This document shows positions 3,739-63,550 of a stretch of DNA of 64,000 bases, one piece after another. The stretch covers positions 9,559 to 73,558 of the forward strand of contig JAHCSE010000001.1 in the NCBI GenBank assembly GCA_018609195.1. The letters run 5' to 3'. This stretch comes from Patescibacteria group bacterium (GTDB lineage Bacteria; Patescibacteriota; Minisyncoccia; Minisyncoccales; RBG-13-36-15). Position numbers and translations under genes: made by a program. The notes under the pieces were generated by a model, which saw nothing but the letters and a program-made list of their open reading frames with translations, made no database searches and had not been told where the DNA came from. Numbering within the stretch: the stretch's first letter is position 1; each line of letters begins with the position of its first letter.

Positions 3739-4470
3739 TACTCGGCTGCCATTTTTTGTTACCGCAATTGTTTGTTCAAAATGGGCTGAAAGAGAACCAT
3801 CTTGAGTTTCATAGCCAAACCCATCTTTTGTTTTTTTAAGTTTCCAATCCCCTATTGTTACCATAGGTTCAATGCAAATTACCATACCTTCTTTTAGCTC
3901 AATTCCTTTATGTCTTTTCCCATAGTTTAAAATTTTTGGGTCCTCATGTAATTCTTTGCCAATTCCGTGGCCACAGAGTTCTCTTACTACATTGTATCCT
4001 TGAGATTCCACATATCTTTGAATGGTATTTGAGATATCCCCTATGGTATTTCCTGGCCTTACTTTTTTAATTCCTCTTTTTAAAGCCTTTTTTGTTACTC
4101 TTATTAATCGTAATGTTTCCGGATTAACTTTTCCTACTGGTAAGGTCACCGCCATATCATTGTGAAAACCCTTATATAAAATCCCCAAATCCAAAGTTAA
4201 AACATCTCCTTCTTTCAAAACTCGATTAGAAGGAACAGAATGGACAATCTCTTCGTTGATTGAACTACAGAGACAGGTTGGAAAACCTTCATATCCTTTG
4301 AAAGAACATTTCCCCCCATATTTTAAAATCAGGCTCTCTGCGAGCCTGTTCAGTTCTTTAGTCGTTATTCCCGGTCTTACTTTCCCTATCAATTCTTTCA
4401 TTATCTTGCCAAGAATTTTTCCACCTTCTGTCATGATTTGAATTTCTTCTGAGGATTTAATCGTTATCAT
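3721..4470 (-). CDS. map: methionine aminopeptidase type I
   Basis: 249 aa with pita-bread motifs DLGILYKGFHNDMA, CGHGIG and ICIEPM. Canonical position after adk. Confidence 0.92.
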   Translation of the reverse strand: MITIKSSEEIQIMTEGGKILGKIMKELIGKVRPGITTKELNRLAESLILKYGGKCSFKGYEGFPTCLCSSINEEIVHSVPSNRVLKEGDVLTLDLGILYKGFHNDMAVTLPVGKVNPETLRLIRVTKKALKRGIKKVRPGNTIGDISNTIQRYVESQGYNVVRELCGHGIGKELHEDPKILNYGKRHKGIELKEGMVICIEPMVTIGDWKLKKTKDGFGYETQDGSLSAHFEQTIAVTKNGSRVLTNLE

Positions 4471-6468: not shown

Positions 6469-6900
6469 TTATTTTATTACGCCTCCTGCTTTCTCAATTT
6501 TCTCTTGAGCTTGCTTTGAAACCTGACATTCTTCAATTGATAACTTTTTTGTCAGTTTCCCTTTTCCTAGAATTTTAACCTGGGGCAATCTTCCTTTTAT
6601 TTTACGAAATATTCTTTTCTCATGCAAGACTTTAGGAGTAATTGTATCTCCCTCTTTAAATTTTTTTTCTAAAATTTCAACATTAATTACAGTTGGTTTT
6701 AATTGAAAACTCTTAAATCTATATCCTCTCAATTTTGGATACCTTTTTATCAATTCTCGAATAATGGGCTTTAATCTTCTGCCTGCTCTCGATTTTTGAC
6801 CTTTCATTCCCTTACCAGAATAAGTTCCGCGTTTACCCCCTCGGCCAACGCGCTTTTTTCTCTTTCTTTTATAATTTGGTTTTAGCTGATGAAGTTGCAT
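6469..6900 (-). CDS. rplO: 50S ribosomal protein L15
   Basis: KRVGRGGKRGTYSGKGMKGQKSR motif; position in the spc operon. Confidence 0.93.
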   Translation of the reverse strand: MQLHQLKPNYKRKRKKRVGRGGKRGTYSGKGMKGQKSRAGRRLKPIIRELIKRYPKLRGYRFKSFQLKPTVINVEILEKKFKEGDTITPKVLHEKRIFRKIKGRLPQVKILGKGKLTKKLSIEECQVSKQAQEKIEKAGGVIK

Positions 6901-14113: not shown

Positions 14114-14132
14114 ATTGTTATTACAGAGCGAA

Positions 14133-14271
14133 GTCGCTCGCCCTCCTCCAGCCTTTGGCTGGCGGTCGCCTTCGGCGACCTTCGGGCTCGCTCTTTAGAA
14201 ACCCTCGGTTTCTAACACTCGCTTCGCTTGCTGTTTTCCTACACGGGAGAACCTATGGTTCTCCCGACCCC
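14133..14271 (-). repeat. module A element, copy A1 (4 hairpins)
   Basis: Sense strand: GGGGTCGGGAGAAC-CATAG-GTTCTCCCGTGTAGGAAAACAG..TTAGAAACC-GAG-GGTTTCTAA..GTCGCC-GAA-GGCGAC..CCAGCC-AAA-GGCTGG..AGGAGGGCGAGCGAC. Confidence 0.85.
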
Positions 14272-14923
14272 TCTCCATTTTGGGCAGCAAATTGGGTTTC
14301 AGGAATGTCTCTTTTATTATATTTATTGATTCTTTAGGTATTAATAAATATTTGAAAGAAAGTAAGTCCAAGGGATTTAAATCTTTAGTCTGGGTAGTTT
14401 CTACTTTAGGAATATTTTTTGAGGCTCTAATGACAGCTTCCTCTTTTGTAGGAAGAGCAATCAAACAAGATGCTTTTTTTATTGGTAGATTATTTAAAAT
14501 CTCAACAATCAATTTTGTCTTTGGTTTATCTAATTTTAAAGAATCCAAAAGAACTATTAAATTTTCTTTAGCTTTCGTTGATAATACCATAAACAAAGCT
14601 TTTCTTCTCATTTTTTTAGGAATTTTTTGCTTAAAAACTCTCGTTTTTCTTGGTCCAAAAGTGATTCCTCCTCCTCGCCAGATTGGAGAACGAATAGAGC
14701 CTGCCCTCGCTCTCCCTGTTCCTTTTTGCCGCCAGGGTTTTCTTCCTCCACCCCGAACCTCAGCTCTAATTTTGGTATGAGCGATAGGAATCCTTCTATT
14801 TGCCATCTGGCTCACCACTACCTGATGTACTAAATCAGGATTGATTTTCACATCAAAAATTTCTTTTGGTAATGAAGTTTTCCCAACTTCTTTTCCTTCT
14901 TGATTGTAAGTCTTAATAAACAT
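14195..14923 (-). CDS. rplD: 50S ribosomal protein L4 (C-terminus reads into repeat A1)
   Basis: L4 motifs (RGGGRKPWRQKGTGRAR). There is no stop before the repeat, so the last ~25 codons (..ERGRENHRFSRVGKQQAKRVLETEGF) are encoded by element A1. Confidence 0.9.
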   Translation of the reverse strand: MFIKTYNQEGKEVGKTSLPKEIFDVKINPDLVHQVVVSQMANRRIPIAHTKIRAEVRGGGRKPWRQKGTGRARAGSIRSPIWRGGGITFGPRKTRVFKQKIPKKMRRKALFMVLSTKAKENLIVLLDSLKLDKPKTKLIVEILNNLPIKKASCLIALPTKEEAVIRASKNIPKVETTQTKDLNPLDLLSFKYLLIPKESINIIKETFLKPNLLPKMERGRENHRFSRVGKQQAKRVLETEGF

Positions 14924-14931
14924 AAGTTAAT

Positions 14932-15080
14932 AGCGAGGGTAAGTTTTTCAAAGAGCATCTCGGAGGCATCGCTGGCATGGTGTCCGAGCGCAACGAGGAA
15001 CAGCGACGCCGAGAGTTGAACAAAATTTTCCTCGCTGGGGAAAATTATTGTGTCTCTTTGAGGAAGCTTTGCCCGAACGC
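14932..15080 (-). repeat. module B element, copy B1 (149 nt)
   Basis: About 91% identical (13 mismatches by eye) to 20288..20436. Fills the whole rplC-rplD spacer. Imperfect terminal inverted repeats GCGTTCGGGCAAAGC / GCTTACCCTCGCT. Confidence 0.85.
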
Positions 15081-15674: not shown

Positions 15675-15873
15675 ACTTTCCTACGAATTACTCTATCGCT
15701 AAGCGACTCCCCGGAGGGTTGATATTTGCGAATATACGAATAATAATTTTCCAACAAAATACCGGGCACTAACCCGGTACTTTATTTTGTAGGTTAGTTA
15801 ATTTTATAATTTTATAAATTTTTGAAATAATTATTTCTTATCATAATGAGATAAAAAATATATTCGTAGGTAT

Positions 15874-15900
15874 CTACATTTTTATTTCGATATCACCTCC
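15874..15900 (-). repeat. orphan duplicate of the last 8 codons + stop of rpsJ
   Basis: ctacatttttatttcgatatcacctcc versus 16010..16036 ctacatttttatttcgatgtcaactcc (25/27 identical). Lies on the far side of element A2. Confidence 0.85.
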
Positions 15901-15990
15901 GTCGCTCCGCTCCTTAGAAACCCGCGGTTTCTAACGCTCGCTTCACTCGCTGTTTTCCTACACGGGGAGACACCCAGTCTCCCCGACCCC
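15901..15990 (-). repeat. module A element, copy A2 (short form, hairpins 1-2)
   Basis: Sense: GGGGTCGGGGAGAC-TGGGT-GTCTCCCCGTGTAGGAAAACAG..TTAGAAACC-GCG-GGTTTCTAA-GGAGCGGAGCGAC. Confidence 0.85.
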
Positions 15991-16009
15991 TTCTGTGCGG
16001 AGTTGCCAT

Positions 16010-16354
16010 CTACATTTTTATTTCGATGTCAACTCCGGCTGGTAAATTTAAATTCATCAGAGAATCGATCACTTTTGAGCTAGGATTTAAAATATCAATG
16101 AGTCTTTTGTGAATTCTCGTTTCAAACTGTTCTCGGGCATCTTTGTGGATAAAAGAAGATCTATTGACGGTGTATTTGTGAATTTCAGTTGGTAAGGGGA
16201 CAGGTCCCGAGACCTCCGCCCCATATCTTAAAACAGTCTCCACAATCTGCCGAGCACTGCTATCTATAACTTTGTGGTCATAGGCTTTAAGCCTTATCCT
16301 AATCCTTGGCTTAACTTCTTCCTCAATTTCTTTTGATTTTTCCTTAACTTTCAT
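16010..16354 (-). CDS. rpsJ: 30S ribosomal protein S10
   Basis: 114 aa; [15 protein letters not shown] and [14 protein letters not shown] motifs. N-terminal K/E extension. Confidence 0.94.
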
Positions 16355-16458: not shown

Positions 16459-17658
16459 CTATTTCACTATCTTCGTCACCACTCCTGCCCCCACTGTCTT
16501 TCCTCCCTCTCTGATGGCAAATCTTTGTTTTTCTTCCAAGGCGATAGGAAAAATTAATTTGATCTTCAAATTAACCGTATCCCCTGGCATAACCATTTCT
16601 GTACCTTCTAGTAAAGTTACCTCTCCTGTAACATCGGTGGTCCGGAAATAAAATTGGGGTTTATAACCAGAAAAGAAAGGAGTATGCCTTCCCCCTTCTT
16701 CTTTCGTTAGCACATAGACTTCTCCTTCAAAATCAGTATGGGGGGTAATTGAACCCGGTTTAGCTAGAACCTGACCTCTTTCCACTTCTTCTTTTTTTAA
16801 TCCCCTTACTAAGATTCCAACATTATCTCCTGCTCTTCCTTCGTCAAGTATTTTGTTAAACATTTCAATACTCACAACCACAGTTTTAATAGTAGGTCGC
16901 AAACCAACCAGTTCAACTTCTTCATTAGGGTGAACTATTCCCCGTTCGATTCTGCCCGTAGCCACCGTTCCTCTCCCTGCAATAGAGAAAACATCTTCAA
17001 TAGCCATCAAAACGGGTTTATCAATTTCTCTCACTGGTTCTGGAATAAAATCATCTAAGGCTTTAACCAAATCCAAAATTGGTTTAGCTTTTTCATCATC
17101 AGGGGAACTGGCCTCCAAGGCTTTCAAAGCCGATCCTCTAATTATTGGAGTTTTATCTCCTGGGAAACCATATTTTTTCAAAAGCTCCCTGAGTTCTGAC
17201 TCCACTAAGTTAATCATCTCTTGATCTTCTACGAGATCGCATTTATTCAAGAAAATAACAATTGAAGGCAGACCAACCTGTCTTGCTAATAAAATGTGTT
17301 CTCTAGTCTGGGGCATGGGGCCATCAGGAGCAGAAACTACTAGAATTGCTCCATCCATTTGAGCAGCTCCCGTAATCATGTTTTTGATGTAATCTGCATG
17401 GCCTGGACAATCAATATGAGCGTAGTGTCTTTTCTCGGTCTCGTATTCAACGTGAGTAATATTGATAGTCAATCCTCGAGCCCTTTCTTCGGGAGCTGAA
17501 TCAATTTCCTCCACTGTCTTTTTTGAGGTCCGCAATCCTTTTAACCCCAAGATTTTCAAAATAGCGGCAGTCAGCGTAGTCTTTCCATGATCGACATGGC
17601 CAATTGTCCCTACGTTGAGATGGGGTTTTACCCTTTCAAATTTTTCTTTCTCTGCCAT
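16459..17658 (-). CDS. tuf: elongation factor Tu
   Basis: [18 protein letters not shown] and NKCD GTPase motifs; 399 aa. Confidence 0.97.
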
Positions 17659-17847: not shown

Positions 17848-17925
17848 CTATTTCCTCTTTCCCTCAATGATCTCCTGAGTAATATTCTGAGGTACTTCTC
17901 CGTAATGGTCGAATTCCATCGTAAA
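17848..17925 (-). pseudogene. orphan second copy of the last 25 codons + stop of fusA
   Basis: Encodes [25 protein letters not shown] versus the fusA end [25 protein letters not shown] (22/25 aa identical, 54/78 nt identical). Confidence 0.85.
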
Positions 17926-18089
17926 GTCGCTCCGCTCCTCCAGTCTTCGGCTGGCGCTCCCCGCCAACATCTTCGAAGTTGTGGCGGGTCGCTTCGCTCC
18001 GCTCCCCAGACACCTCTCGGTTTCTGGCGGTCGTCGCTTCGCTCCTCCCTGTTTTCCTACACGGGAAAACACCCAGTTTTCCCGACCCC
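17926..18089 (-). repeat. module A element, copy A3
   Basis: Sense: GGGGTCGGGAAAAC-TGGGT-GTTTTCCCGTGTAGGAAAACAG..CCAGAAACC-GAGA-GGTGTCTGG..two further hairpins..GGAGCGGAGCGAC. Confidence 0.85.
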
Positions 18090-18120
18090 TTTCTGCTTCA
18101 CTATGGAGTTTTATCTAAAA

Positions 18121-20256
18121 TTATCTCCGTTTGCCTTCTATAATTTCTTGTGCGATGTTCCCTGGCACTTCACCGTAGTGATCAAACTCCATAGTAAACG
18201 TTCCTCGGCCTTCGGTCATCGATCGCAAAGCTGTGGCATAACCAAACATCTCAGCCAGAGGAACTTTAGCTGAAATTATTTTCAAATTTAACCTATCTTT
18301 TGTTTCTTCAATCTTCCCCCTCCTCGCTCCTAAATCCCCAATAGTATCTCCAAAAAATTCAGAAGGAATAATTACTTCTAATCTCATTATCGGTTCAAGT
18401 AAAATAGGTTTTGCTCTTTTGGCGGCCGTTTGCAAAGCAGCAGATGCAGCTATCTTGAAAGCAAATTCTGAGGAATCAACCTCATGATAGGAACCATCAT
18501 AAAGAGTCACTTCGATGTCAACCATAGGATAGCCTGCAGTTATCCCTTTTTCCATAGCTTCCTTCACTCCTTTTTTCACAGCGGGGATAAATTCTTTTGG
18601 GATGATTCCTCCTTTAATCTCGTCGATAAATTCAAATCCCTCTCCTCGTGTTTTGGGCCGAATTTTCAAGAAAACATGACCATATTGGCCTCTGCCGCCT
18701 GATTGTCTAATATATTTTCCTTCAGCTGAAGTTTCCTCTTTTATTGTTTCTTTATAGGCAACCTGAGGTCTTCCGGATGAAGCTTCCACCTTAAATTCTC
18801 TTCTCATTCGATCATTAATTATCTCTAAATGGAGCTCCCCCATTCCTGAGATAATAGTTTCTCCCGTTTCTAAATCACTTTTAATTTTAAAAGTGGGGTC
18901 TTCCTCAGCCAATCTTTTCAAAGCTAAACTCATTTTCTCTTGGTCGGCCTTCGTTTTCGGTTCAATTCGAATGGAAATGACAGGTTCTGGAAAGGTAATT
19001 TTTTCTAAGACAATGGGGTTATCAGGGTCACAAAGAGTATGACCAGTACTAGTTTTTTTTAATCCAACCGTAGCCCCAATATCTCCAGCGAAAAACTCTT
19101 GTACTTCCTCACGATCTGCCGCATGCATCCTTAAAATTCTCCCAATTCTCTCTTTCTCGCCCGTAGTTGCATTTAATACATAAGAACCTCTTTTTAAGCT
19201 ACCTGCATAAACTCGGAAATAATTTAAAGTTCCAACATAAGGATCAGCAGCAGATTTAAAAACCAAAGCGGAAAATGATTCTGAATCTAAAACTTTTCTT
19301 TCAATTTCCTGACCATTTCGAGGATCAACTCCTCTCACCGGAGGTAAATCCAAGGGGCTAGGCAAAAAATTCACAATTCCATCTAAGAGAGGCTGAATTC
19401 CTTTATTTCTCAAAGCTGATCCACAAAATACCGGGATGAGTTTGTAGGAAATTGTGGCTTTTCTCAATACTTCTCTCAATTCATTGATTGAAATTTCCTT
19501 TTTGGCTAAGTATTTCTCTAAAAGTTTCTCATCTTCAGCTGCAATTTTCTCCACTAATTTTTCTCGCCACTCTTTAGCGATCTTGCGCAAATTTTCAGGT
19601 ATCTCTTCTTCAACAACATTCTGGCCAAAGTCACCTTCAAATTTTAAGGCTCGCATTGTAAAGAGATCAATCACTCCTTCAAAATTTTCCTCGCTACCAA
19701 TTGGTAATTGAAGAACCACCGCCTGGGGAGATAATTTTTCCCAAATTGATTGCAAGCTCTTTTCAAAAGAAGCTCCTGTCCTATCCATTTTATTGATAAA
19801 GCAAATTCTGGGAACAGAAAATCTATCTGCTTGATGCCATACCGTCTCAGATTGAGGTTCTACTCCTGCTACTCCATCGAAAATCACTACCGCCCCATCC
19901 AAAACTCGCAAAGATCTTTGTACTTCCGCTGTAAAATCAATATGGCCAGGAGTATCAATAATGTTTATTCGATACTCATCTTTTTTGCTTTTTTCTTTGG
20001 ATTGACCGGGGGCGGTGTGTGGGTGATAGGTGGATGGAGTCCAAAAACAAGTAGTGGCTGCAGCTGTAATAGTAATTCCCCTTTCTTTTTCTTGAATCAT
20101 CCAATCCATTATTGCCTCCCCTTCATGAACTTCTCCAATTTTATGAGAAATTCCAGTATAGAAAAGCACCCGCTCAGTAACGGTTGTTTTCCCAGCATCG
20201 ATATGAGCAATAATACCAATATTGCGAGTTCGTTCTATTGGATACAAACGAGGCAT
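18121..20256 (-). CDS. fusA: elongation factor G
   Basis: [17 protein letters not shown] and NKMD motifs; 711 aa. Confidence 0.97.
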
Positions 20257-20287
20257 AATTTGTAGAAGCGGATTTACGCGGATCTAA

Positions 20288-20436
20288 AGCGAGGGTAAGC
20301 TTCTCAAAGAGCATCTCGGAGGCGTCGCTGGCAAGGTGTCCGAGTAAAGCGAGGAACAGCGACGCCGAGAGTTGAACAAAATTTTCCTCGCTGGGAAAAA
20401 TTATTGTGTCTCTTTGAGGGGGCTTTGCCCGAGCGA
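20288..20436 (-). repeat. module B element, copy B2 (149 nt)
   Basis: See B1. Contains a 10-bp stem GGCGTCGCTG/CAGCGACGCC and a long-range stem CTCAAAGAG/CTCTTTGAG. Confidence 0.85.
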
Positions 20437-20452
20437 ATCACCAAGCCAAATG

Positions 20453-20603
20453 GTCGCTCGCCCTCCTCCAGCGCAGAGCGCTGGCGGACGCCTTTGGCGT
20501 CCTTCGGGCTCACTCCCCAGACACCTCTCGGTTTCTGGCGCTCCTTCGCTTTCGCTCAGTCACTGTTTTCCTATACGGGGAAACACCCAGTTTCCCCGAC
20601 CCC
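20453..20603 (-). repeat. module A element, copy A4
   Basis: Sense: GGGGTCGGGGAAAC-TGGGT-GTTTCCCCGTATAGGAAAACAG..CCAGAAACC-GAGA-GGTGTCTGG..GACGCC-AAA-GGCGTC..CCAGCGC-TCT-GCGCTGG..AGGAGGGCGAGCGAC. Confidence 0.85.
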
Positions 20604-20609
20604 TTTCTG

Positions 20610-20635
20610 CCACTTTGCGTTACCACGCAAAGTGG
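20610..20635 (-). promoter_or_regulatory. 10-bp hairpin enclosing the rpsG stop codon
   Basis: CCACTTTGCG-TGGTAA-CGCAAAGTGG on the sense strand. The stop codon is in the loop, and the 3' arm abuts element A4. Confidence 0.7.
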
Positions 20636-21087
20636 GCAAAAGCTCTATTCGCCTCTGCCATCCTGTGAGTATTTTCTTTCTTTTTCACTGCCCAGCCAGT
20701 GTTATTTGCGGCTTCTATCATTTCTTCAGCCAATTTCTCTCTCATTGGTTTTCCTTTTCTTGATTTGGCAGCTTGGATAATCCAACGCATAGCTAAAGTT
20801 AGCCTTCTTTCCCCTTTCACTTCTCTCGGAACCTGATAGGTAGCACCTCCAATTCTTTTCGCTTTAACCTCAAGTAAGGGGGAGGCATTTTTCAGAGCCT
20901 GATCAAAAACTTCCAAGGGGTCTTTTTTCGTTTTTCCTTTAATTATATCAAAGGCCTGATAAACAATTCTTCTCGCCAGCATCTTTTTCCCTCGCCGCAT
21001 TACCTGATTGATAAACTTTGATACAATGATGTTATTGTAAACCGGGTCAGATGTAATTTCCCTTTTTTCTTTTTTCTTCCTCCTCAT
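20620..21087 (-). CDS. rpsG: 30S ribosomal protein S7
   Basis: 155 aa; [14 protein letters not shown] and RAFAHFAW C-terminus. Confidence 0.95.
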
Positions 21088-21090
21088 AAA

Positions 21091-21501
21091 TTATTTTTCT
21101 TTTTTTGTTCCATACCTTGATCTTCTTTGTTTTCTCTCCTCCACTCCTCCCGCATCTAAAACCCCCCTGACCACATAATATCTTACTCCTGGTAAATCCT
21201 TCACTCTTCCTCCCCGAAGTAAAACTATTGAGTGCTCTTGCAAATTATGGCCTTCCCCAGGTATGTAAGCTGTAACCTCCATACCATTGGTCAATCTTAC
21301 TCTCGCTACTTTTCTTAAGGCAGAATTTGGTTTCCTGGGAGTAACGGTAAATACTTTTAGACAAACTCCTCTTTTGAAAGGAGAAGGATAAAATTTTGGT
21401 CTATTTTTTAATACATTAAAGCTAAATTCCAAAGCTGGCCTCTTTCCAGGTTTTTTAATTCTCTTTCTCCCTTTTTTGATTAGTTGATGAATAGTTGGCA
21501 T
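21091..21501 (-). CDS. rpsL: 30S ribosomal protein S12
   Basis: [29 protein letters not shown] and [12 protein letters not shown] motifs. Confidence 0.96.
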
Positions 21502-21618
21502 AAACCCTACGAATTACGAATCAGTACGAATATACGAATAAATTTCCCCGACCCCTTCCGACGTGGGCTGCTATTTCTGTTTCGCAGACAATAGTAACAT
21601 TATCCTCTCAAAAATAAT

Positions 21619-24251: not shown

Positions 24252-25325
24252 TCAGAAATGTAAAACATCTACCATTTGTTTAATTAAAGAAAGAACCACT
24301 GCCGGAGGCAATAAACTGTAAGAAGGAACTCCTTTATCATCAGGAAAAACCCAGGGTTTTTCAATTATTTCCACCTTTTTATCTTCCTCTATCCACTTAT
24401 AGTTATATTCGGGAGTAATTTCATAATCATCTACATATTCTTTTACCCTCTCTACAGGAACTGAATTTCTCAGAAGAATCCTGGGAATTCCATAAAGAGC
24501 GAAGGCTTGTTTAATCAACCGTTCATCCATTGTAAAACGCCTCTTTATTGGCTCTATTCCTCGCTCATCTCCTTCTTTTGCGACCATTTTTATTTCCTGA
24601 CAAGTGGGATTATCACAAATAAAGAAAAACTTTTTGCTCAGTTCATCGTATCTAACTTCTTTCGCTGGATGAAGCCTTAAATTTCTGGGGGTTTGACAGT
24701 TAGGACACACTACTCGAAATTTCATTCTCTCGTCAATTACTTTTCCAGGAACATCAATCAAAATAAAGACATCAGGGTCAGATCTGTAACCAATAAGGTC
24801 TCGGAAAAATAAAGAATATGAGATCTGATCCAAATCTCTCGGAAAACCATCTATAAAAAGGGCTTTTCTTTCCATTTTGTCTATCTCTCCTTTCGCTAAG
24901 GCTAAAATAAATTCAGTTGGCAAAAGAGTCTCCGTATTTCTACTCAAGAGTTTTTCAATTGCTTTCTCAATGGGAAGGAAGCCTCGATAATTTGAGGAAA
25001 GCCGGTGTATCAATTCTTCTTTGTTTTTTTGTTCTAAAATTTCTTGGTGCGATTTTCGAACGATATCTCCAATCGAAACGTGACTCACGCGTTCTTTATT
25101 AACAATCTCTGCAAATATCTTTGAGTAAGTTCCTTTGCCAGAATTCTTTTTCCCCAAGAGATAAGCAATGAAAGTATTTTTCTTGAGATACTCTCTTAAT
25201 TTCTTGATTTCCGATCCCGCCTTGAACTCAAAATATTCCTGTATCTCTTTGGGATCAGCTAAATTGAATTTCCGAGTGGGACCTTTAATTTTTGTTTTAA
25301 AAATCGGGAAGTTAATATCCCTCAT
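24252..25325 (-). CDS. long adenylate-kinase-family nucleotide kinase
   Basis: 357 aa; P-loop GKKNSGKGT and a zinc-type LID (CPNC...CDNPTC). Much longer than the canonical adk at 4467. Confidence 0.6.
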   Translation of the reverse strand: MRDINFPIFKTKIKGPTRKFNLADPKEIQEYFEFKAGSEIKKLREYLKKNTFIAYLLGKKNSGKGTYSKIFAEIVNKERVSHVSIGDIVRKSHQEILEQKNKEELIHRLSSNYRGFLPIEKAIEKLLSRNTETLLPTEFILALAKGEIDKMERKALFIDGFPRDLDQISYSLFFRDLIGYRSDPDVFILIDVPGKVIDERMKFRVVCPNCQTPRNLRLHPAKEVRYDELSKKFFFICDNPTCQEIKMVAKEGDERGIEPIKRRFTMDERLIKQAFALYGIPRILLRNSVPVERVKEYVDDYEITPEYNYKWIEEDKKVEIIEKPWVFPDDKGVPSYSLLPPAVVLSLIKQMVDVLHF

Positions 25326-25364
25326 AGTCCTACGAATTACGAATATTTACGAATATACGAACAG

Positions 25365-26219: not shown

Positions 26220-26298
26220 TGATTTTATTATAACGAACTATGTTCGATATATCACGCTGCGCGTGCTATAGGTTAGTTTATTGTGATTGAAAACAAAA

Positions 26299-26317
26299 AA
26301 CCGCCTTCTTGGCGATT
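26299..26317 (-). terminator. family terminator AATCGCCAAGAAGGCGGTT(T)n, copy a
   Basis: 7-bp stem AATCGCC/GGCGGTT, loop AAGAA, then a T-run. Downstream of 26339..26704. Confidence 0.6.
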
Positions 26318-26704: not shown

Positions 26705-26722
26705 TATTTCATTCTATCAAAA

Positions 26723-26741
26723 AACCGCCTTCTTGGCGATT
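26723..26741 (-). terminator. family terminator, copy b
   Basis: Identical 19-mer aaccgccttcttggcgatt. Downstream of 26823..27479. Confidence 0.6.
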
Positions 26742-27479: not shown

Positions 27480-27728
27480 TTTTCTCTTCCCTCCTTAACT
27501 GCAGATGTATTTTAAGTTAATTTAGATATTTGTAAAGAGTTAGGTTATATAGATTTTCACAAAAACAATCATTCAATAAAGAGTGGCGTTTTATTTTTTT
27601 AGGCTCCCAGACGGCGACTCAAACCCTTAAACCCTCACCTCCAACTCAAATTTAAGCCAATTATTGGACCATTGTCTATGGTCTCTCAGATTACGAACGG
27701 TGGTCTACTAATGGTTATTAAGGATAAA

Positions 27729-27747
27729 AACCGCCTTCTTGGCGATT
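27729..27747 (-). terminator. family terminator, copy c
   Basis: Identical 19-mer. Downstream of 27842..28087. Confidence 0.55.
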
Positions 27748-28917: not shown

Positions 28918-28937
28918 ATATATAATTCTAACAAAAA

Positions 28938-28956
28938 AACCGCCTTTTTGGCAATT
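28938..28956 (-). terminator. family terminator, copy d (variant)
   Basis: aaccgcctttttggcaatt. Downstream of the 29072..29224 gene. Confidence 0.5.
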
Positions 28957-30731: not shown

Positions 30732-31253
30732 TTAGTATTCAACCCCTATTTTTGCTAAAACCCCTTTTTTAAAAGGGTGTTTTATTTCTTTACATTCAGT
30801 TGCCAAATCAGCAATCTTAATTAACTCTTTGGGGGCACCTCTCCCAGTAAGAATTAAATCTACTTCAGAAGGAGCTTTTTTTAGAATTTCCAAGACTTCT
30901 CTTAATTTAATGAGATTTAAAGAGATGGCAACATTTACTTCATCTAAAATTATCAAGTCAAATTCTCCAGAATGAATCGCATTTTTGGCAATTTTTAAGG
31001 TCTCTCGGGCTGCAAGTTCGTGAACTTCTCGGGGAAGCTTGTCCCCCATTATCCCAACAAAACCTTCTCCGCCTTTTATCAATTGAAATTTTGGTTCTAG
31101 GCTTTGGATGGTCTTTTCCTCGCCAGTTGGCCATTTTTTACTTTTAATGAACTGAATCATCAAAACTCGCTTTCCCTGGCCAACTGCCCGAATTCCCTGG
31201 CCAATGGCAGCTGTCGTTTTCCCTTTTCCATTCCCAGTAAAAACAAAAATCAT
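30732..31253 (-). CDS. cobO: ATP:cob(I)alamin adenosyltransferase (CobA/CobO/BtuR type)
   Basis: 173 aa; P-loop GNGKGKTTAA and ILDE motif. Overlaps nrdJ by 4 nt. Confidence 0.85.
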   Translation of the reverse strand: MIFVFTGNGKGKTTAAIGQGIRAVGQGKRVLMIQFIKSKKWPTGEEKTIQSLEPKFQLIKGGEGFVGIMGDKLPREVHELAARETLKIAKNAIHSGEFDLIILDEVNVAISLNLIKLREVLEILKKAPSEVDLILTGRGAPKELIKIADLATECKEIKHPFKKGVLAKIGVEY

Positions 31254-33553
31254 GTTTGAGGTATTTGAGCAGGTACACTCCCTTCTTCAGAGTCAAACTC
31301 ACACACACCTCCTACACAGGCTAACTCTTTGAAACCTGTGGTTTCATCTTCTTTCTCATAAACGATAATCTGGGCAAAGTCAACTTTTGGTAGTTTCTCT
31401 ACCAGTTCTTGATATTTTTCCTCATCGATTTCCTCGTAGGGAGCAAGTCGATAGACATGTTCTGCGCGTGGAATAAAAGAGAGCCCTCCTAAAATATTCC
31501 AGTTATCATAAAGCCAGTATGTAGCTTGAATCCACTCGTTCTCACCTACAGAAACGGTAACTGAGGGATTATGCTCGGTGAAATTTTCCTTCACCATCTT
31601 CCAGTGTCTAAGTTGATCGAGTGCTGTTAAATCATTTCGGAAAACAGCTCTCTCGGGAGATTTTACTGGAAACTCAAGCACAAAGGTCGTGGCCGAGTCC
31701 TCGAGCTGTCCAACTTCAGGATGATATGGAAATTTTTGTTCTTTCAACATTTGGAAAAGAGGGTCATTTGCCGATATACGAACTCGTCTAATATAAAAGG
31801 GAGAGTGTCGAGGGTGCATACCAGAGGCAGCATCCACAAGTTGAGATAATGTACCTGAAGGTTTGACACAGGTGATGCAGGTTGATTCCGAAATCCCAAA
31901 TTTCTTGGCATATTCACGATTGATTTCGAGCGATCTTTCCCGAAGTTTCCTGAGGGTTTCGGCTGATCTAGCTGCAGGACAATCCCACTGACCGGTTATC
32001 GAAATTCCTAAAAGCCTTTCCTCCTCGCAGTTTTGCTTCCATTCTTTTGAAAGATAAGAAAAATTGGTGAGAGTAGATTGATAGGTACCGAGCAAGGTGG
32101 CGATTTCGATCTTTTTCAGAAGAGATTCTTCAGTATCCTCGGGTCTGGCCACTACCTCGGTTAAATTGCAAAATTGTTTGGATCTTAATATAATTTCTCC
32201 GCATGGATTTGTGCCGGCAGTGGCCCAATATTTTTTAAATGTCTTCCAGCGCCTCTCTGGTAATTGATGTTTTAATCCTCCTCTATTAAAAATGCCTCTC
32301 TCGCCAGTTCCACTTTTAGCGAGCGCTAACCATTCTTCAAGAAACTGGATTGCGCTGGGTTTCTCATTATAAACCGCGGAGTTGTTGGCCATCGATCTCT
32401 GAGGATCAGTAACATAAAACTGGCCAGCTTTAGCTCCCCTCATATCTTCATCGTCGAGATCAGAAAGGGATATTAAAGCAGATCTTCGCACTCCACCCAT
32501 CACTACAATTTCCCCAATTTTGCAGATAATGTCATGAACATCAAGATTGGAGAGGCGTTTTCCTTGACGACTCAAAACTTTAGAGCGAACAAAATCTAAA
32601 AGTGATTTAAGTGCCCCAGGGCCTGAACTTCGACCTCCCATGGTCTTTAACTTTGATCCTGCTGGCCGAATCTTGGAGTAATCAAATATAATATCTTTAC
32701 CATTATACCAGGCTTTAAGTCCGATAGTTAACGCATCTCCCCATCCCTCTTTGCTGTCTAAAATTACATGGGCAGGTAATACTTGACCGGTCTGGCGTTT
32801 CACAATTGGTAGCTGCTGGACCGTTTGACTCTCCACTGAGAAGCCAACTCCTGTACCGCACATTAAAAGATATATAATTTCAGCAAAATCACGAAACTCG
32901 CTTGGTGCAATAAAAGAACAGTTATACACTGAGACATTGGAAGCCCTCGCTGCTTTCCCGGCAGCCCATAAAAGTCTCATCGATGGCATCACTTGATGAT
33001 TTAGGATTGCCTCTTTTATTTCCTGGTATTCGTTATCTCTTAACTTCTTGCCAAGATTCTCTCTCATGAAATCCACATAGCGATTGACCGTCTCAATCCA
33101 GGTTTCTCTCCTTCCCTCCTCTTCAATCCAGCGAGAATAAGTACGATAATAAATAAACTCAGCCAGCTCATTCCTGAAATATTTCCTACTCTTTCGCACA
33201 AGACCCTGCACCCGCTCGGGAATTAACTTCTTTTTTTCCCGAACTTCAGCTCTTGCTTGCCGATAGAGAATGTAAGCTTTTGCTGTCTTTGGAAAATCTC
33301 TCAGAATCAGAGTTTCTTCTACTAAGTCTTGAGTCCCCTCCACTTGAGGAATGTGAGGAGGAGGATAACGCTTCTCGAGTTTTTTCACTACCCTGTCTGA
33401 AATTCGAAGAGGATCTCGCGAAAGATTCCCTTCCCCAGCAGCTTGCATTGCTTTGGAGATTGCATTGGTAATTCGATTTTGGTCAAACGGAACAATATTG
33501 CCTTCTCTTTTTCGAATTTCTTTAATTTTATTTTTCAATTTTGGAAGCTGCAT
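31250..33553 (-). CDS. nrdJ: class II (adenosylcobalamin-dependent) ribonucleotide reductase with N-terminal ATP-cone
   Basis: 767 aa; ATP-cone (VRKREGNIVPFDQNRITNAI), TNPCGEI active-site loop, C-terminal Cys pair. Confidence 0.88.
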   Translation of the reverse strand: MQLPKLKNKIKEIRKREGNIVPFDQNRITNAISKAMQAAGEGNLSRDPLRISDRVVKKLEKRYPPPHIPQVEGTQDLVEETLILRDFPKTAKAYILYRQARAEVREKKKLIPERVQGLVRKSRKYFRNELAEFIYYRTYSRWIEEEGRRETWIETVNRYVDFMRENLGKKLRDNEYQEIKEAILNHQVMPSMRLLWAAGKAARASNVSVYNCSFIAPSEFRDFAEIIYLLMCGTGVGFSVESQTVQQLPIVKRQTGQVLPAHVILDSKEGWGDALTIGLKAWYNGKDIIFDYSKIRPAGSKLKTMGGRSSGPGALKSLLDFVRSKVLSRQGKRLSNLDVHDIICKIGEIVVMGGVRRSALISLSDLDDEDMRGAKAGQFYVTDPQRSMANNSAVYNEKPSAIQFLEEWLALAKSGTGERGIFNRGGLKHQLPERRWKTFKKYWATAGTNPCGEIILRSKQFCNLTEVVARPEDTEESLLKKIEIATLLGTYQSTLTNFSYLSKEWKQNCEEERLLGISITGQWDCPAARSAETLRKLRERSLEINREYAKKFGISESTCITCVKPSGTLSQLVDAASGMHPRHSPFYIRRVRISANDPLFQMLKEQKFPYHPEVGQLEDSATTFVLEFPVKSPERAVFRNDLTALDQLRHWKMVKENFTEHNPSVTVSVGENEWIQATYWLYDNWNILGGLSFIPRAEHVYRLAPYEEIDEEKYQELVEKLPKVDFAQIIVYEKEDETTGFKELACVGGVCEFDSEEGSVPAQIPQT

Positions 33554-35679: not shown

Positions 35680-35826
35680 AAAAATGTGTCCTCCTCCGTT
35701 AAAACTTTGGAGGACATGGATGGCATTCTGACTTTCACAGTTACGGCATAGTCCCGGATTTCCTGCCCGCATCGCTATACGAAGTATTGCAGGCGGGTCA
35801 CCGGAGTTCCCCATCCGTTTTCAAAG
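35680..35826 (-). promoter_or_regulatory. cobalamin riboswitch with terminator expression platform
   Basis: Sense strand: GGATGGGGAACTCCGGTGA...GGAAATCCGGGACTATGCCGTAACTGTGAAAGTCAGAATGCCATCC (B12-box-like AGTCAGAATGCC; P1 stem GGATGG/CCATCC). This is followed by the hairpin TGTCCTCC...GGAGGACA and T7. Confidence 0.78.
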
Positions 35827-35837
35827 TCCGTTAATAA

Positions 35838-53882: not shown

Positions 53883-53905
53883 AGAGGTTTAATAATAGTG
53901 TAAGT

Positions 53906-54075
53906 CTACTACATCCCCCAAATAAAAAATATAGTAAACATCCACATGCTTGTTAAAACTAATATTCCGCCTGCAACCTTTTTCATTGTTTCTGTTTTTC
54001 CAATCATTGTTTTGAAAAAAGTGTGCTTACCCTGTCCGATAAATACGGTAACTGCAATAAGAAATAGGGCTTGAA
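53906..54075 (-). pseudogene. orphan 3'-terminal fragment of a CcdA-like gene
   Basis: About 93% identical (about 12 mismatches in ~170 nt by eye) to 55384..55553, the 3' end of 55387..56214. No upstream coding part remains. Confidence 0.8.
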
Positions 54076-55357: not shown

Positions 55358-55386
55358 TTATTTTTCTACAAACGTTAGAAAGATTA

Positions 55387-56214
55387 CTACATTCCCCATA
55401 TAAAGAATATAGCAAACATCCACATACTTGTTAAGACTAATATTCCGCCTGCGACCTTTTTCATTGTTTCTGTTTTTCCAATCATTGTTTTGAAAAACGT
55501 GTGCTTTCCCTGCCCGATAAATACGGTAACTGCAATAAGAAATAATGCTTGAGCAAGACTAAAAATCAGAAAGCTTGAAATACTGACTAAAAATTCTCCA
55601 CCCACAAGAGGGAAGAATACCAATGGTAAAAAGATGGGCAAGAAACACATCAATCCTCCAGCCCCATATACAATGCCAAAGCCAAAAAGATTAACGCTTT
55701 GTGAACGCCCACGACTCATTTTATTAACTTTATCTCTGAAGGAAGAAAGAAAATTAATATTGATAGATTTGCCACGCAAAAAAGCAATGCCGATAAACAA
55801 AATGAGAATTGCAACGGCAAATTTCAATTGGCTAGCATAGGAAGCCAGAAATGTCCCGATAGTCGCAAAAAGTAAACCAAGGACAATAAAGAAGCTGAAT
55901 ACACCGAGTGAGGCAATAATGCCAAGCTTGATACTTCTTTTAATTGGCGAGTGTTTTTCTTCTCCCTCGTCCATTCCAAGATAAAAAGACATATAAGCCG
56001 GAAGCACTCCTAAGGAACAGGGTCCAAAATTCACAATAAGCCCGGCAATGAAAGCAAAGCCCAAAATACCAAGCGTGCTAAAGGCAGCAAGATTGCTTGT
56101 CTGGGGAATAATAATCCCATACAGAACTTTCCAGCCAAAGATACTGGCAACCACAAAAATAGTAAGTGCTGCCAATATCCAAATGCTATAAGTTACTATT
56201 TTTGACTTAATCAT
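55387..56214 (-). CDS. CcdA/DsbD-like thiol-disulfide transporter paralog
   Basis: NFGPCSLGVLPAYMSFY motif. Start set at MIKSKIV (4 nt after the stop of the upstream gene) rather than the track's 56286. Confidence 0.68.
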   Translation of the reverse strand: MIKSKIVTYSIWILAALTIFVVASIFGWKVLYGIIIPQTSNLAAFSTLGILGFAFIAGLIVNFGPCSLGVLPAYMSFYLGMDEGEEKHSPIKRSIKLGIIASLGVFSFFIVLGLLFATIGTFLASYASQLKFAVAILILFIGIAFLRGKSININFLSSFRDKVNKMSRGRSQSVNLFGFGIVYGAGGLMCFLPIFLPLVFFPLVGGEFLVSISSFLIFSLAQALFLIAVTVFIGQGKHTFFKTMIGKTETMKKVAGGILVLTSMWMFAIFFIWGM

Positions 56215-57404: not shown

Positions 57405-57457
57405 GTGTATTTTTCCACAAGAGTTCTCATTGTTTTGTTTTGTATAGAGATATAAAA

Positions 57458-57476
57458 AACCGCCTTCTCGACGATT
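57458..57476 (-). terminator. family terminator, copy e (variant)
   Basis: aaccgccttctcgacgatt. Downstream of 57515..57700. Confidence 0.5.
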
Positions 57477-63346: not shown

Positions 63347-63390
63347 TCTCTTTTATTGTATTGGAATTTTAATTCCGATACAACACAGGA

Positions 63391-63512
63391 GGGGTCGGGA
63401 GGATTGGGTATCCTCCCGTATAGGAAAACAGGCTTTCAGGTGAGCGAAGCGAAGACTGAAAACGTTAGAAACCGTGGGTGTCTAAAGAACATGGTGCCGA
63501 GCGTTAGCGAGG
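63391..63512 (+). repeat. module A element, copy A6 (opposite orientation)
   Basis: Plus strand: GGGGTCGGGAGGAT-TGGGT-ATCCTCCCGTATAGGAAAACAG..GAGCGAAGCGAAG..TTAGAAACC-GTG-GGTGTCTAA.. Confidence 0.8.
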
Positions 63513-63550
63513 TCTATGTTCTTATACCGCATTTTATTCACAAACAAAAA

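Follow-up and report, generated by a model that had tools for sequence, protein, structure and literature searches.

The hairpin that spans the stop codon of rpsG in the Patescibacteria (Nealsonbacteria-like) genome studied here is probably the left-junction signature of an inserted cassette, one member of a family of small structured elements, GC-rich and non-autonomous, that occurs throughout Patescibacteria. The locus lies within a 64,000-nt stretch of contig JAHCSE010000001.1 (assembly GCA_018609195.1), hereafter the window, in which the genes for ribosomal protein S7 (rpsG) and elongation factor G (EF-G; fusA) are neighbours. In the model that we favour, the inserted unit would consist of a gene tail running from a start segment, P, to an end, q (16 nt with the stop codon in the case of rpsG), a linker that repeats the initial 10 nt of this tail in inverted orientation, and a structured core, E, and it would have been joined to the chromosome exactly at the 5' border of the resident P. 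The gene would now read into the tail and stop codon of the cassette, the resident tail would stay behind E as a dead copy, and the hairpin would exist because the cassette tail and the linker are neighbours. The element is apparently undescribed; no description of it was found in the literature, where the nearest paper deals with group I introns in anticodon loops (PMC13011429).

On the sense strand, the end of rpsG reads CCACTTTGCG-TGGTAA-CGCAAAGTGG and is followed directly by CAGAAAGGGGTCGGGG. The parts of the locus, from rpsG towards fusA, are as follows.

20626..20635, minus strand: CCACTTTGCG, the stem's 5' arm, with which tail copy 1 opens (P, 10 nt) and which holds the last rpsG codons ..H F A; recognised as an inverted repeat and by folding.
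20620..20625, minus strand: loop TGGTAA, a Trp codon and the rpsG stop TAA (20620-20622), the end (q) of tail copy 1; open reading frame (ORF) 20620-21087.
20610..20619, minus strand: CGCAAAGTGG, the 3' arm or linker, which repeats P perfectly in inverted orientation and begins right after the stop codon.
20454..20609, minus strand: element core E, delimited by repeat families and by a 38-sequence alignment with compensatory changes.
20438..20453, minus strand: displaced tail copy 2, CCATTTGGCTTGGTGA, in frame H-L-A-W-stop, directly after ..GCGAC.
20288..20437, minus strand: module B, 150 nt, resembling a MITE (miniature inverted-repeat transposable element), 92% identical to 14932-15079 (minus strand).
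20257..20287, minus strand: native rpsG-fusA spacer, 31 nt, ending at the fusA ATG; it differs at 1 of 31 positions from the end of the spacer in the closest relative, L080.
20257-20619, minus strand: the whole rpsG-fusA gap, 363 nt.

Within E, the spacer CAGAAAG is followed by GGGGTC, hairpin 1 (GGGGAAAC/GTTTCCCC), GTATAGGAAAACAG and a purine-rich GAGCGAAAGCGA stretch; then come hairpin C (CCAGAAACC..GGTGTCTGG) and a 3' domain that contains two GC hairpins and has GGGCGAGCGAC as its end. A preliminary description of this DNA had reported a hairpin with the rpsG stop codon in its loop, a 3' arm adjoining a GC-rich element, a GC-rich gap of 363 nt, 16 nt between modules A and B and 31 nt before the fusA ATG, and all of this agrees with the sequence and its coordinates. 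The stem (20610-20635) gains one further U-A pair beyond the 10 bp described, giving 11 bp and a loop of 4 nt, with a folding energy of -17.5 kcal/mol as RNA and -12.5 kcal/mol as DNA. The 213-nt stretch around it folds with -98.8 kcal/mol (z = -5.7 against shuffles), and the spacer has a GC content of 57-59%, compared with 37.7% for the window.

REP-type (repetitive extragenic palindromic) hairpins near stop codons are known to affect the translation of the gene upstream. With this general precedent, and with a stem that is stable and includes the stop codon, one may suppose that the hairpin is a pre-existing regulatory or terminator structure, serving attenuation, protection of the mRNA 3' end or S7/EF-G coupling, and that the element landed beside it or targets hairpins of this kind. 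We consider this barely credible, and the comparison with relatives largely refutes it. Seven relatives (L080-L086), obtained through their S7 proteins (85-94% identical), carry neither the stem nor an A-type element after rpsG. Their rpsG-fusA gaps measure about 10, 26, 61 and 82 nt where there is no element of any kind, bearing out the earlier remark that the spacer is abnormally long for a str operon, and 212, 212 and 613 nt with other inserts. Because the stem and the element are missing together, the stem appears to have arrived within the inserted cassette, and the possibility raised earlier that relatives might show it without any element, as a pre-existing terminator, was not borne out. 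Neither a U-tract nor a promoter- or terminator-like site was found around the stem (20603-20642) in the scan; CAGAAAGGGG comes after the stem. Moreover, the 3' arm starts at the first base past the stop codon and lies at a fixed distance from module A, as it does in about 30 insertions with unrelated stems. The stem would accordingly be a structural by-product of the cassette, and if it influences S7 termination or EF-G coupling at all, it would do so as a side effect. Such effects are possible, since a terminating ribosome must melt the stem and 363 nt separate S7 from EF-G; nothing that we found requires an effect on termination, ribosome release or S7-EF-G coupling, and the relatives do without the stem.

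The comparison with L080 also separates the two modules of the spacer. In L080, the rpsG stop codon TAG is followed by CC, the last 28 nt of module B (2071-2098) and a 31-nt spacer with a single difference from 20257-20287. Module B would thus predate the split between the window and L080 and would later have been truncated in L080, while the A-type cassette at rpsG appears specific to the lineage of the window (L001 is the same organism). The view that A and B form one composite element is therefore not upheld: with its remnant at the same site in a genome that has no A, module B looks like an independent, older, MITE-like insertion unrelated to the A-type element. It has ends resembling terminal inverted repeats (TIRs; AGCG..GGGCAAAGC and GCTTACCC..CGCT), folds into one long imperfect hairpin of -48.5 kcal/mol and always starts 0-3 nt past a stop codon, at rpsG directly after the old, displaced one. 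Relatives of module B stand right after the rpsG stop in L083 (4469-4680) and L085 (1969-2180). With the cassette and module B subtracted, the rpsG-fusA spacer comes to 31 nt, to all appearance its original length.

A duplicated rpsG tail had been sought earlier and reported as absent, with a weak GCGTAA resemblance at 20262-20280 as the nearest approach. That resemblance belongs to native spacer shared with L080, and the duplicate does exist: it is the 16-nt tail copy 2 at 20438-20453, which makes sense of the whole structure. It is identical to copy 1, CCACTTTGCGTGGTAA (H-F-A-W-stop), at 12 of 16 nt, lies exactly where the architecture of the family predicts, and is followed at the next base by module B. 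The native rpsG tails of the relatives read CAT TTT/C GCC/T TGG TAG/TAA/TGA, and copy 2 is presumably the resident rpsG tail moved downstream by the cassette. The 16-nt tails, differing from L080 at 3 as against 4-5 positions, do not have the length needed to tell which copy is ancestral, so that this part of the argument rests on fusA.

The fusA and rpsJ genes of the window carry sister cassettes, all in the order gene tail with stop, inverted copy of the tail start, element, second tail copy. The stem at rpsG had been likened to guide-like linkers at these two genes, and the parallel holds.

17926..18198, minus strand: fusA cassette; tail copy 1 from 18198 past the stop at 18121-18123, linker 18097-18115, E from 18096 down to 17926.
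17848..17925, minus strand: displaced resident fusA tail (copy 2), 78 nt, with an intact reading frame, running into the native fusA-tuf spacer.
15872..16037, minus strand: rpsJ cassette; P 16025-16037, stop 16010-16012, linker 15998-16010, E to 15901, tail copy 2 at 15872-15900.
Stem, loop and displaced tail: 11 bp, 4 nt and 16 nt at rpsG; 19 bp, 64 nt and 78 nt at fusA; 13 bp, 14 nt and 29 nt at rpsJ.

Between the window and L080, fusA is 87-98% identical along the gene until P is reached. The last ~80 nt (copy 1) are only 74% identical to L080 and about 88-89% identical to the native tail of L081, whereas copy 2 shares 91% identity with the L080 native tail and continues into an L080-like spacer; the two copies of the window are 69% identical to each other. 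The switch in identity falls within 1-2 nt of P, between GGCCGAGGAAC and G TTTACTATGG, and coincides with the base of the stem. Because the two copies match different lineages, with the breakpoint at P, copy 1, the linker and E together would be the inserted DNA, attached precisely at the 5' border of the resident P, and the fusA cassette appears to have come from another lineage.

An exact-pattern scan for module A, with one genome per species, yielded 77 loci, from which 81 copies were parsed; since the search pattern itself demanded GGGTCGGG and CCGTRTAGGAAAACAG, their invariance is no evidence of conservation. All 77 loci belong to Patescibacteria metagenome-assembled genomes (Parcubacteria/Paceibacteria, Nealson-, Niyogi-, Staskawicz-, Jorgensen- and Colwellbacteria), and a scan of a viral collection gave no match. 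The full layout, a strong stem ending 4-8 nt before GGGTCGGG together with a downstream direct duplicate, is present in 30 of the 81 copies; of 362 anchors chosen at random in the same sequences, none shows it. The duplicate of 5' arm and loop lies 86-270 nt downstream; its start coincides with the opening base of the 5' arm (14 cases) or is at most a few bases away from it, and in every parsed copy the 3' end of E, GCGA(C), directly precedes it. The stem arms are near-perfect, 9-23 bp long, and are directed at more than 30 unrelated targets for one element family, among them tRNA T-arms, the G1 and C-terminal motifs of EF-G, and the tails of S7 and S10. About 12 copies stand behind tRNA genes in the order tRNA, terminator hairpin, inverted T-arm copy, E, and duplicated tRNA 3' end from the T-loop. 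The C-terminal FTMEF motif of fusA is the target in the window, L004 and L006, and in L009, L064 and L069 an antisense element sits in the rpsG-fusA spacer, with 86-113 nt duplicated, covering the fusA start and the AHIDAG codons, and the gene intact. In all cases P lies within the conserved gene end, q lies outside it (0-16 nt past stop codons, or just past tRNA terminators) and copy 1 is contiguous with the gene body, so that the gene stays intact.

Single loci add to this picture. At the tRNA-Lys gene of L033, two cassettes in tandem come with three tail copies, which fits a target regenerated by insertion, and in L016 the terminator is brought by copy 1 and is missing from the resident flank. 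The two tail copies of L006 and L009 are 93% to nearly 100% alike, suggesting that cassettes are also made or homogenised locally. Other copies are found in rRNA operons, in L046 (4395-4435) between the 16S gene and the spacer tRNAs and in L052 (2646-2800) immediately upstream of the 16S 5' end. The copy in L059 (minus strand, about 3850-4040 in element orientation) carries a nested GC-rich insertion of ~150 nt between module A and hairpin C, indicating that elements can insert into each other.

A small, repeated, non-coding, intergenic element with direct repeats at both flanks, some of them nearly identical (L009, L006), invites comparison with an ordinary MITE moved by a classical transposase, in which the tail copies would be a target-site duplication left by staggered cuts and the stem chance or secondary. 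This is very improbable. The A-type element has no TIRs, its sole inverted repeat being that of target and linker, and the duplications vary in length, measuring 16, 29 and 78 nt at rpsG, rpsJ and fusA of the window and as much as 113 nt at other loci, whereas a given transposase yields a fixed one. The inverted copy of the duplicate's start at the left junction, seen in the 30 copies above and at none of the control anchors, also speaks against it, and the fusA copies, coming from different lineages, are impossible as a fresh target-site duplication.

Another resemblance is to integrative islands and prophages in tRNA or gene 3' ends, which likewise supply a replacement 3' end, displace the resident end as a direct repeat (attL/attR), use T-loop junctions and leave the gene functional. 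The cassette could accordingly be a miniature integrative element served in trans by a tyrosine or serine integrase, with the tail copies as attL and attR, a linker that does not guide, and a stem reflecting the symmetry of a binding site or an accident. Direct repeats of a gene end, a functional copy supplied by the element and sharp breakpoints are indeed found here, and the relative L082 has a gene for a large serine recombinase close to its str operon. We nevertheless hold this to be quite improbable, since more than 30 unrelated targets in one family are beyond sequence-specific recognition of one att site, and the stems are specific to their targets rather than conserved. The elements are only about 95-250 nt long and contain no ORF, thus no recombinase of their own; an inverted copy of the target start stands beside the new tail, and some insertions lie at the 5' ends of genes in antisense orientation. 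Within 3.5 kb of 80 copies there is no recurrent mobility ORF or integrase. In the 8-kb flanks and the 64-kb window, no TnpA, TnpB, IS110, IscB or reverse transcriptase was found, and 10 large ORFs of the window are all housekeeping genes.

The sequences show that the junction falls precisely at the foot of a stem derived from the target, that between 16 and 113 nt of target are duplicated, that the cassette provides the functional gene end, and that distant lineages are hit at the same conserved sites. With these in mind, one may propose that the linker acts as a guide, whose pairing with P, as RNA or as single-stranded DNA, sets the point at which the 3' end of E is joined. Such a role would explain why the junction always lies opposite the last linker base, why the targets are highly conserved and why sites are used repeatedly in distant lineages. 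New linkers would be copied from the target, since near-perfect arms of 9-23 bp cannot arise by chance, and the enzyme would be supplied in trans. As a speculation, the joint of q and linker could form by snap-back copying, a template jump or circularisation, with which microhomologies of 3-5 nt at that joint (GAT at rpsJ, GATAA at fusA) are consistent; a circular or concatemeric P..q-linker-E molecule, exchanging at its E-P joint with the X-P joint of the target, would yield the product observed. A DNA route would use a hairpin-dependent recombinase or HUH enzyme acting in trans, comparable to the guide logic of IS200/IS605 and to folded attC and CTX sites, while an RNA route would use cleavage 5' of the guide helix and subsequent reverse transcription. 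A bolder reading, which we offer only tentatively, is that the elements perform a programmable, nucleic-acid-guided insertion, with a module of ~95 nt and a target copy of 9-23 nt, joining at the 5' edge of the paired sequence and leaving a spare gene end each time, which would let them colonise essential, highly conserved genes (tRNAs, EF-G, ribosomal proteins) throughout a phylum; the activity would come from RNA catalysis or from an enzyme, of the host or acting in trans, whose kind has so far no known link to guided integration.

Joining at the 5' base of an internal-guide helix is the topology of group I P1/P10, of hepatitis delta virus (HDV)-like and hatchet ribozymes and of RNase P substrates. 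The same topology in the cassette raises the possibility of an intron-like or self-processing RNA that is cut 5' of P at both copies, with the linker pairing to either of them, so that copy 1, linker and E are excised and the gene body is joined to copy 2; it would spread by reverse splicing, or as circular RNA with subsequent recombination of the cDNA. In favour of an RNA route are the position of q just past stop codons or terminators and targets that are very abundant RNAs (tRNAs, the mRNAs of ribosomal proteins and EF-G, the rRNA spacer); copy 2 has kept an open reading frame at fusA and rpsJ, and hairpin 1 contains G.T pairs without A.C pairs. Yet the terminators lie upstream of E in the tRNA cassettes, the antisense 5'-end insertions would need antisense transcripts, and copy 2 of rpsG has an F-to-L change in the conserved HFAW tail. 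No Rfam 15 family overlaps any copy (the window at the gathering threshold, 13-22.5 kb at an E-value <= 5 and eight other loci at an E-value <= 1), which leaves no intron or ribozyme match, Intron_gpI included. Group I membership is further contradicted by the absence of a U.G pair at the junction, by a guide that pairs 3' of the junction and by ends of E in C or A (...GCGAC at rpsG) instead of the terminal G. As to group II introns and retroelements, no reverse transcriptase is found among the neighbouring ORFs, and a survey of Patescibacteria genomes, which did not assess reverse transcriptases in general, detected group II introns in none of them (PMC13011429). On balance, we regard an intron-like cassette as unlikely.

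Among known DNA elements, IS200/IS605 insertion sequences provide a precedent for the proposed guide. In these elements a guide next to a hairpin base-pairs with the cleavage and target sites, retargeting by a change of guide has been demonstrated, and the intermediates are single-stranded. Together with the palindrome-associated transposable elements (PATEs) mobilised by a TnpA Y1 enzyme, they share with the cassette a hairpin-rich structure without TIRs. The differences are nonetheless clear, in that the IS200/IS605 guide has 4 nt, the target is a fixed tetra- or pentanucleotide and nothing is duplicated, whereas here the paired segment is 9-23 nt, is specific to each site and accompanies duplications of 16-113 nt. 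The subterminal hairpins at both ends and fixed 4-5 nt target that mark PATEs are not seen; no conserved motif occurs in the 8 nt preceding P, and inspection by eye of ~15 junctions gave no target- or protospacer-adjacent (TAM/PAM-like) motif there. A structured non-coding module beside a short target-complementary segment at the element boundary is also a feature of the IS110 bridge RNA and the omega RNAs of IscB and TnpB; in those systems, however, no gene tail is carried and the target is not duplicated, and neither their genes nor an Rfam match accompanies the cassette.

Homing-endonuclease inserts resemble the cassette in another respect, since there too a foreign C-terminal segment replaces the resident one in conserved essential genes and the resident tail persists downstream as a pseudo-copy; they differ in encoding an endonuclease, in being kilobase-sized and in having no guide-like inverted copy. 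The mitochondrial atp6 gene of Allomyces reportedly contains a free-standing insertion of this type with a foreign gene tail. Finally, REP sequences and bacterial interspersed mosaic elements (BIMEs), Rickettsia palindromic elements (RPEs) and the GC-cluster or double-hairpin elements of mitochondria are also small, GC-rich hairpin mosaics in the spacers of compact AT-rich genomes, often just past stop codons, and differ in lacking target-derived stems and long gene-end duplications. REP sequences are 20-40 nt long, have a 5' GTAG and are associated with RAYT (REP-associated tyrosine transposase) genes. The present unit has 95-250 nt and several different hairpins, places GTAG 3' of hairpin 1 and does not form inverted pairs. 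The cassette thus combines features of integrative islands, of the IS200/IS605 guide and of REP/GC-cluster elements and fails the membership tests of each.

Several points weigh against the explanation that we favour. A duplicate of 16 nt with 12 matches is weak by itself, and it is its exact position that makes the rpsG copy count. For rpsG, neither an enzyme, nor an intermediate, nor a pair of empty and filled alleles within one species was found, and a metagenome scan for the predicted pre-insertion rpsG allele gave no match; what a further metagenome scan for other insertions of the W-stop, linker and A type turned up was for the most part chance similarity in GC-rich DNA, without another case at rpsG. 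How the junction of q and linker forms is a matter of speculation, with the microhomologies at fusA and rpsJ as its sole support. The guide target (X-P, with copy 1) is intact in the occupied allele, which is awkward for a simple homing-nuclease model. Lastly, two subfamilies of the element, 2 and 3, share the core E and have fixed 5' ends in place of a target-derived stem, so that a guide is not universal in the family.

If the proposed origin is true, the ultra-small genomes of Patescibacteria host tiny non-coding mobile cassettes that enter essential genes with a spare gene end and an inverted copy marking the joint. This would account for bloated GC-rich spacers at ribosomal-protein, EF-G/EF-Tu, tRNA and rRNA loci, for assembly breaks at such loci and for ORFs that run into repeats, such as rplD. 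The tie between a target-complementary segment and the exact junction would offer a testable case for pairing-guided integration by an enzyme or an RNA, which bears on the biology of mobile elements and may be useful in genome engineering. The proposed origin also calls for caution in annotation, as gene 3' ends in Patescibacteria genomes can be imported from another lineage.

The core E is made up of two conserved hairpins, conserved single-stranded segments and the 3' end ...GCGAC. In the 38-sequence alignment, hairpins 1 and C are preserved by compensatory changes: hairpin 1 alternates between A-U and G-C at 5 positions, and hairpin C (AGAAACC..GGTTTCT) covaries at two basal pairs. Among 61 distinct hairpin-1 sequences there are 4 G.T and no A.C pairs, pointing to the sense strand as the one that folds. 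Variable GC hairpins are inserted between purine motifs of the GAGCGA type, and the minimal element has ~95 nt. Subfamily 2 begins with a fixed (T)AACATCCCAYATCGG (CCCAYATCGG) overlapping the upstream stop codon and ends in a fixed ...GCGAC-TGACTTTGTATTACCAC (GTATTACCAC-ATG), right next to which stands the following start codon, a 16S gene or a tRNA. Copies of both subfamilies are present in the window.

14114..14290, minus strand: subfamily-2 copy that fills the rplD-rplW junction, its 3' end adjoining the rplW ATG.
63356..63521, plus strand: subfamily-3 copy with a fixed 13-bp 5' hairpin, TTGTATTGGAATT/AATTCCGATACAA, including one T.G pair.

The reading frame of rplD (ribosomal protein L4) extends ~32 codons into the subfamily-2 copy (14195-14290, minus strand), and the L4 C-terminus ...MERGRENHRFSRVGKQQAKRVLETEGF is encoded by the element. 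In the window as a whole, module A recurs at 14263, 15982, 18081, 20595, 21547 (partial) and 63391, and GGGGTCGGG has 6 matches where 0.2 are expected. The partial copy (21547-21555, minus strand) is an incomplete module A start, GGAAGGGGTCGGGGAAA, upstream of rpsL and fused to a TTCGTA motif; it is probably the remnant of a deleted element.

Further ideas about the cassette were rejected. Pairing of the CAGAAAG spacer with the sequence before P occurs at rpsG and is absent at fusA, rpsJ and L009, so we take it for a coincidence. A tRNA-like identity of module A, suggested by the adjoining GGATTCGAACC, gave way when ARAGORN placed the real tRNAs upstream, the motif being an inverted T-arm copy. 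The template and variable repeats of a diversity-generating retroelement do not fit either, as the differences between tail copies are not limited to adenines and tRNAs are among the targets.

The rpsG locus forms part of a str/S10 ribosomal gene cluster, in which several spacers are long and have 55-60% GC.

21091-21501, minus strand: rpsL.
20620-21087, minus strand: rpsG.
18121-20256, minus strand: fusA.
16459-17658, minus strand: tuf.
After tuf, in cluster order, minus strand: rpsJ, rplC, rplD, rplW.

A TTCGTA-rich motif (TTATTCGTATATTCGTA..TTCGTAATTCGTAGG) stands directly upstream of start codons at 21502-21545, 25329-25343 and 15675-15740 (minus strand) of the window. The genes concerned are rpsL, rplC and the gene at 24252-25325, as well as fusA/tuf in L081, L083 and L085, with no obvious Shine-Dalgarno sequence; the motif might serve as a leader or promoter, or be one more small repeat. 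In the relatives, a third GC-rich repeat family has units that contain TTCGCTAACGCTCGG and a GAAGAAGAT../..ATCTTCTTC hairpin, in L086 at 1297-1500 (three tandem units in the rpsL-rpsG spacer) and in L082 at 6670-6790 (part of the fusA-tuf spacer).

Elsewhere in the window, the repeat AAAAAACCGCCTTCTTGGCGATT follows genes at five sites (26286-26317, 26710-26741, 27716-27747, 28925-28956 and 57445-57476) and looks like a shared terminator-type hairpin unrelated to the cassette. A direct repeat of 173 nt, 92% identical, lies at 53902-54074 and 55380-55552, at the ends of neighbouring genes for a CMAS-type methyltransferase and a DsbD-like membrane protein. An AdoCbl-II riboswitch match above the gathering score was found at 35713-35827 (minus strand), a few kb from the B12-dependent ribonucleotide reductase gene (31250-33553) on the same strand; as it lies downstream of that gene, it is not its leader.

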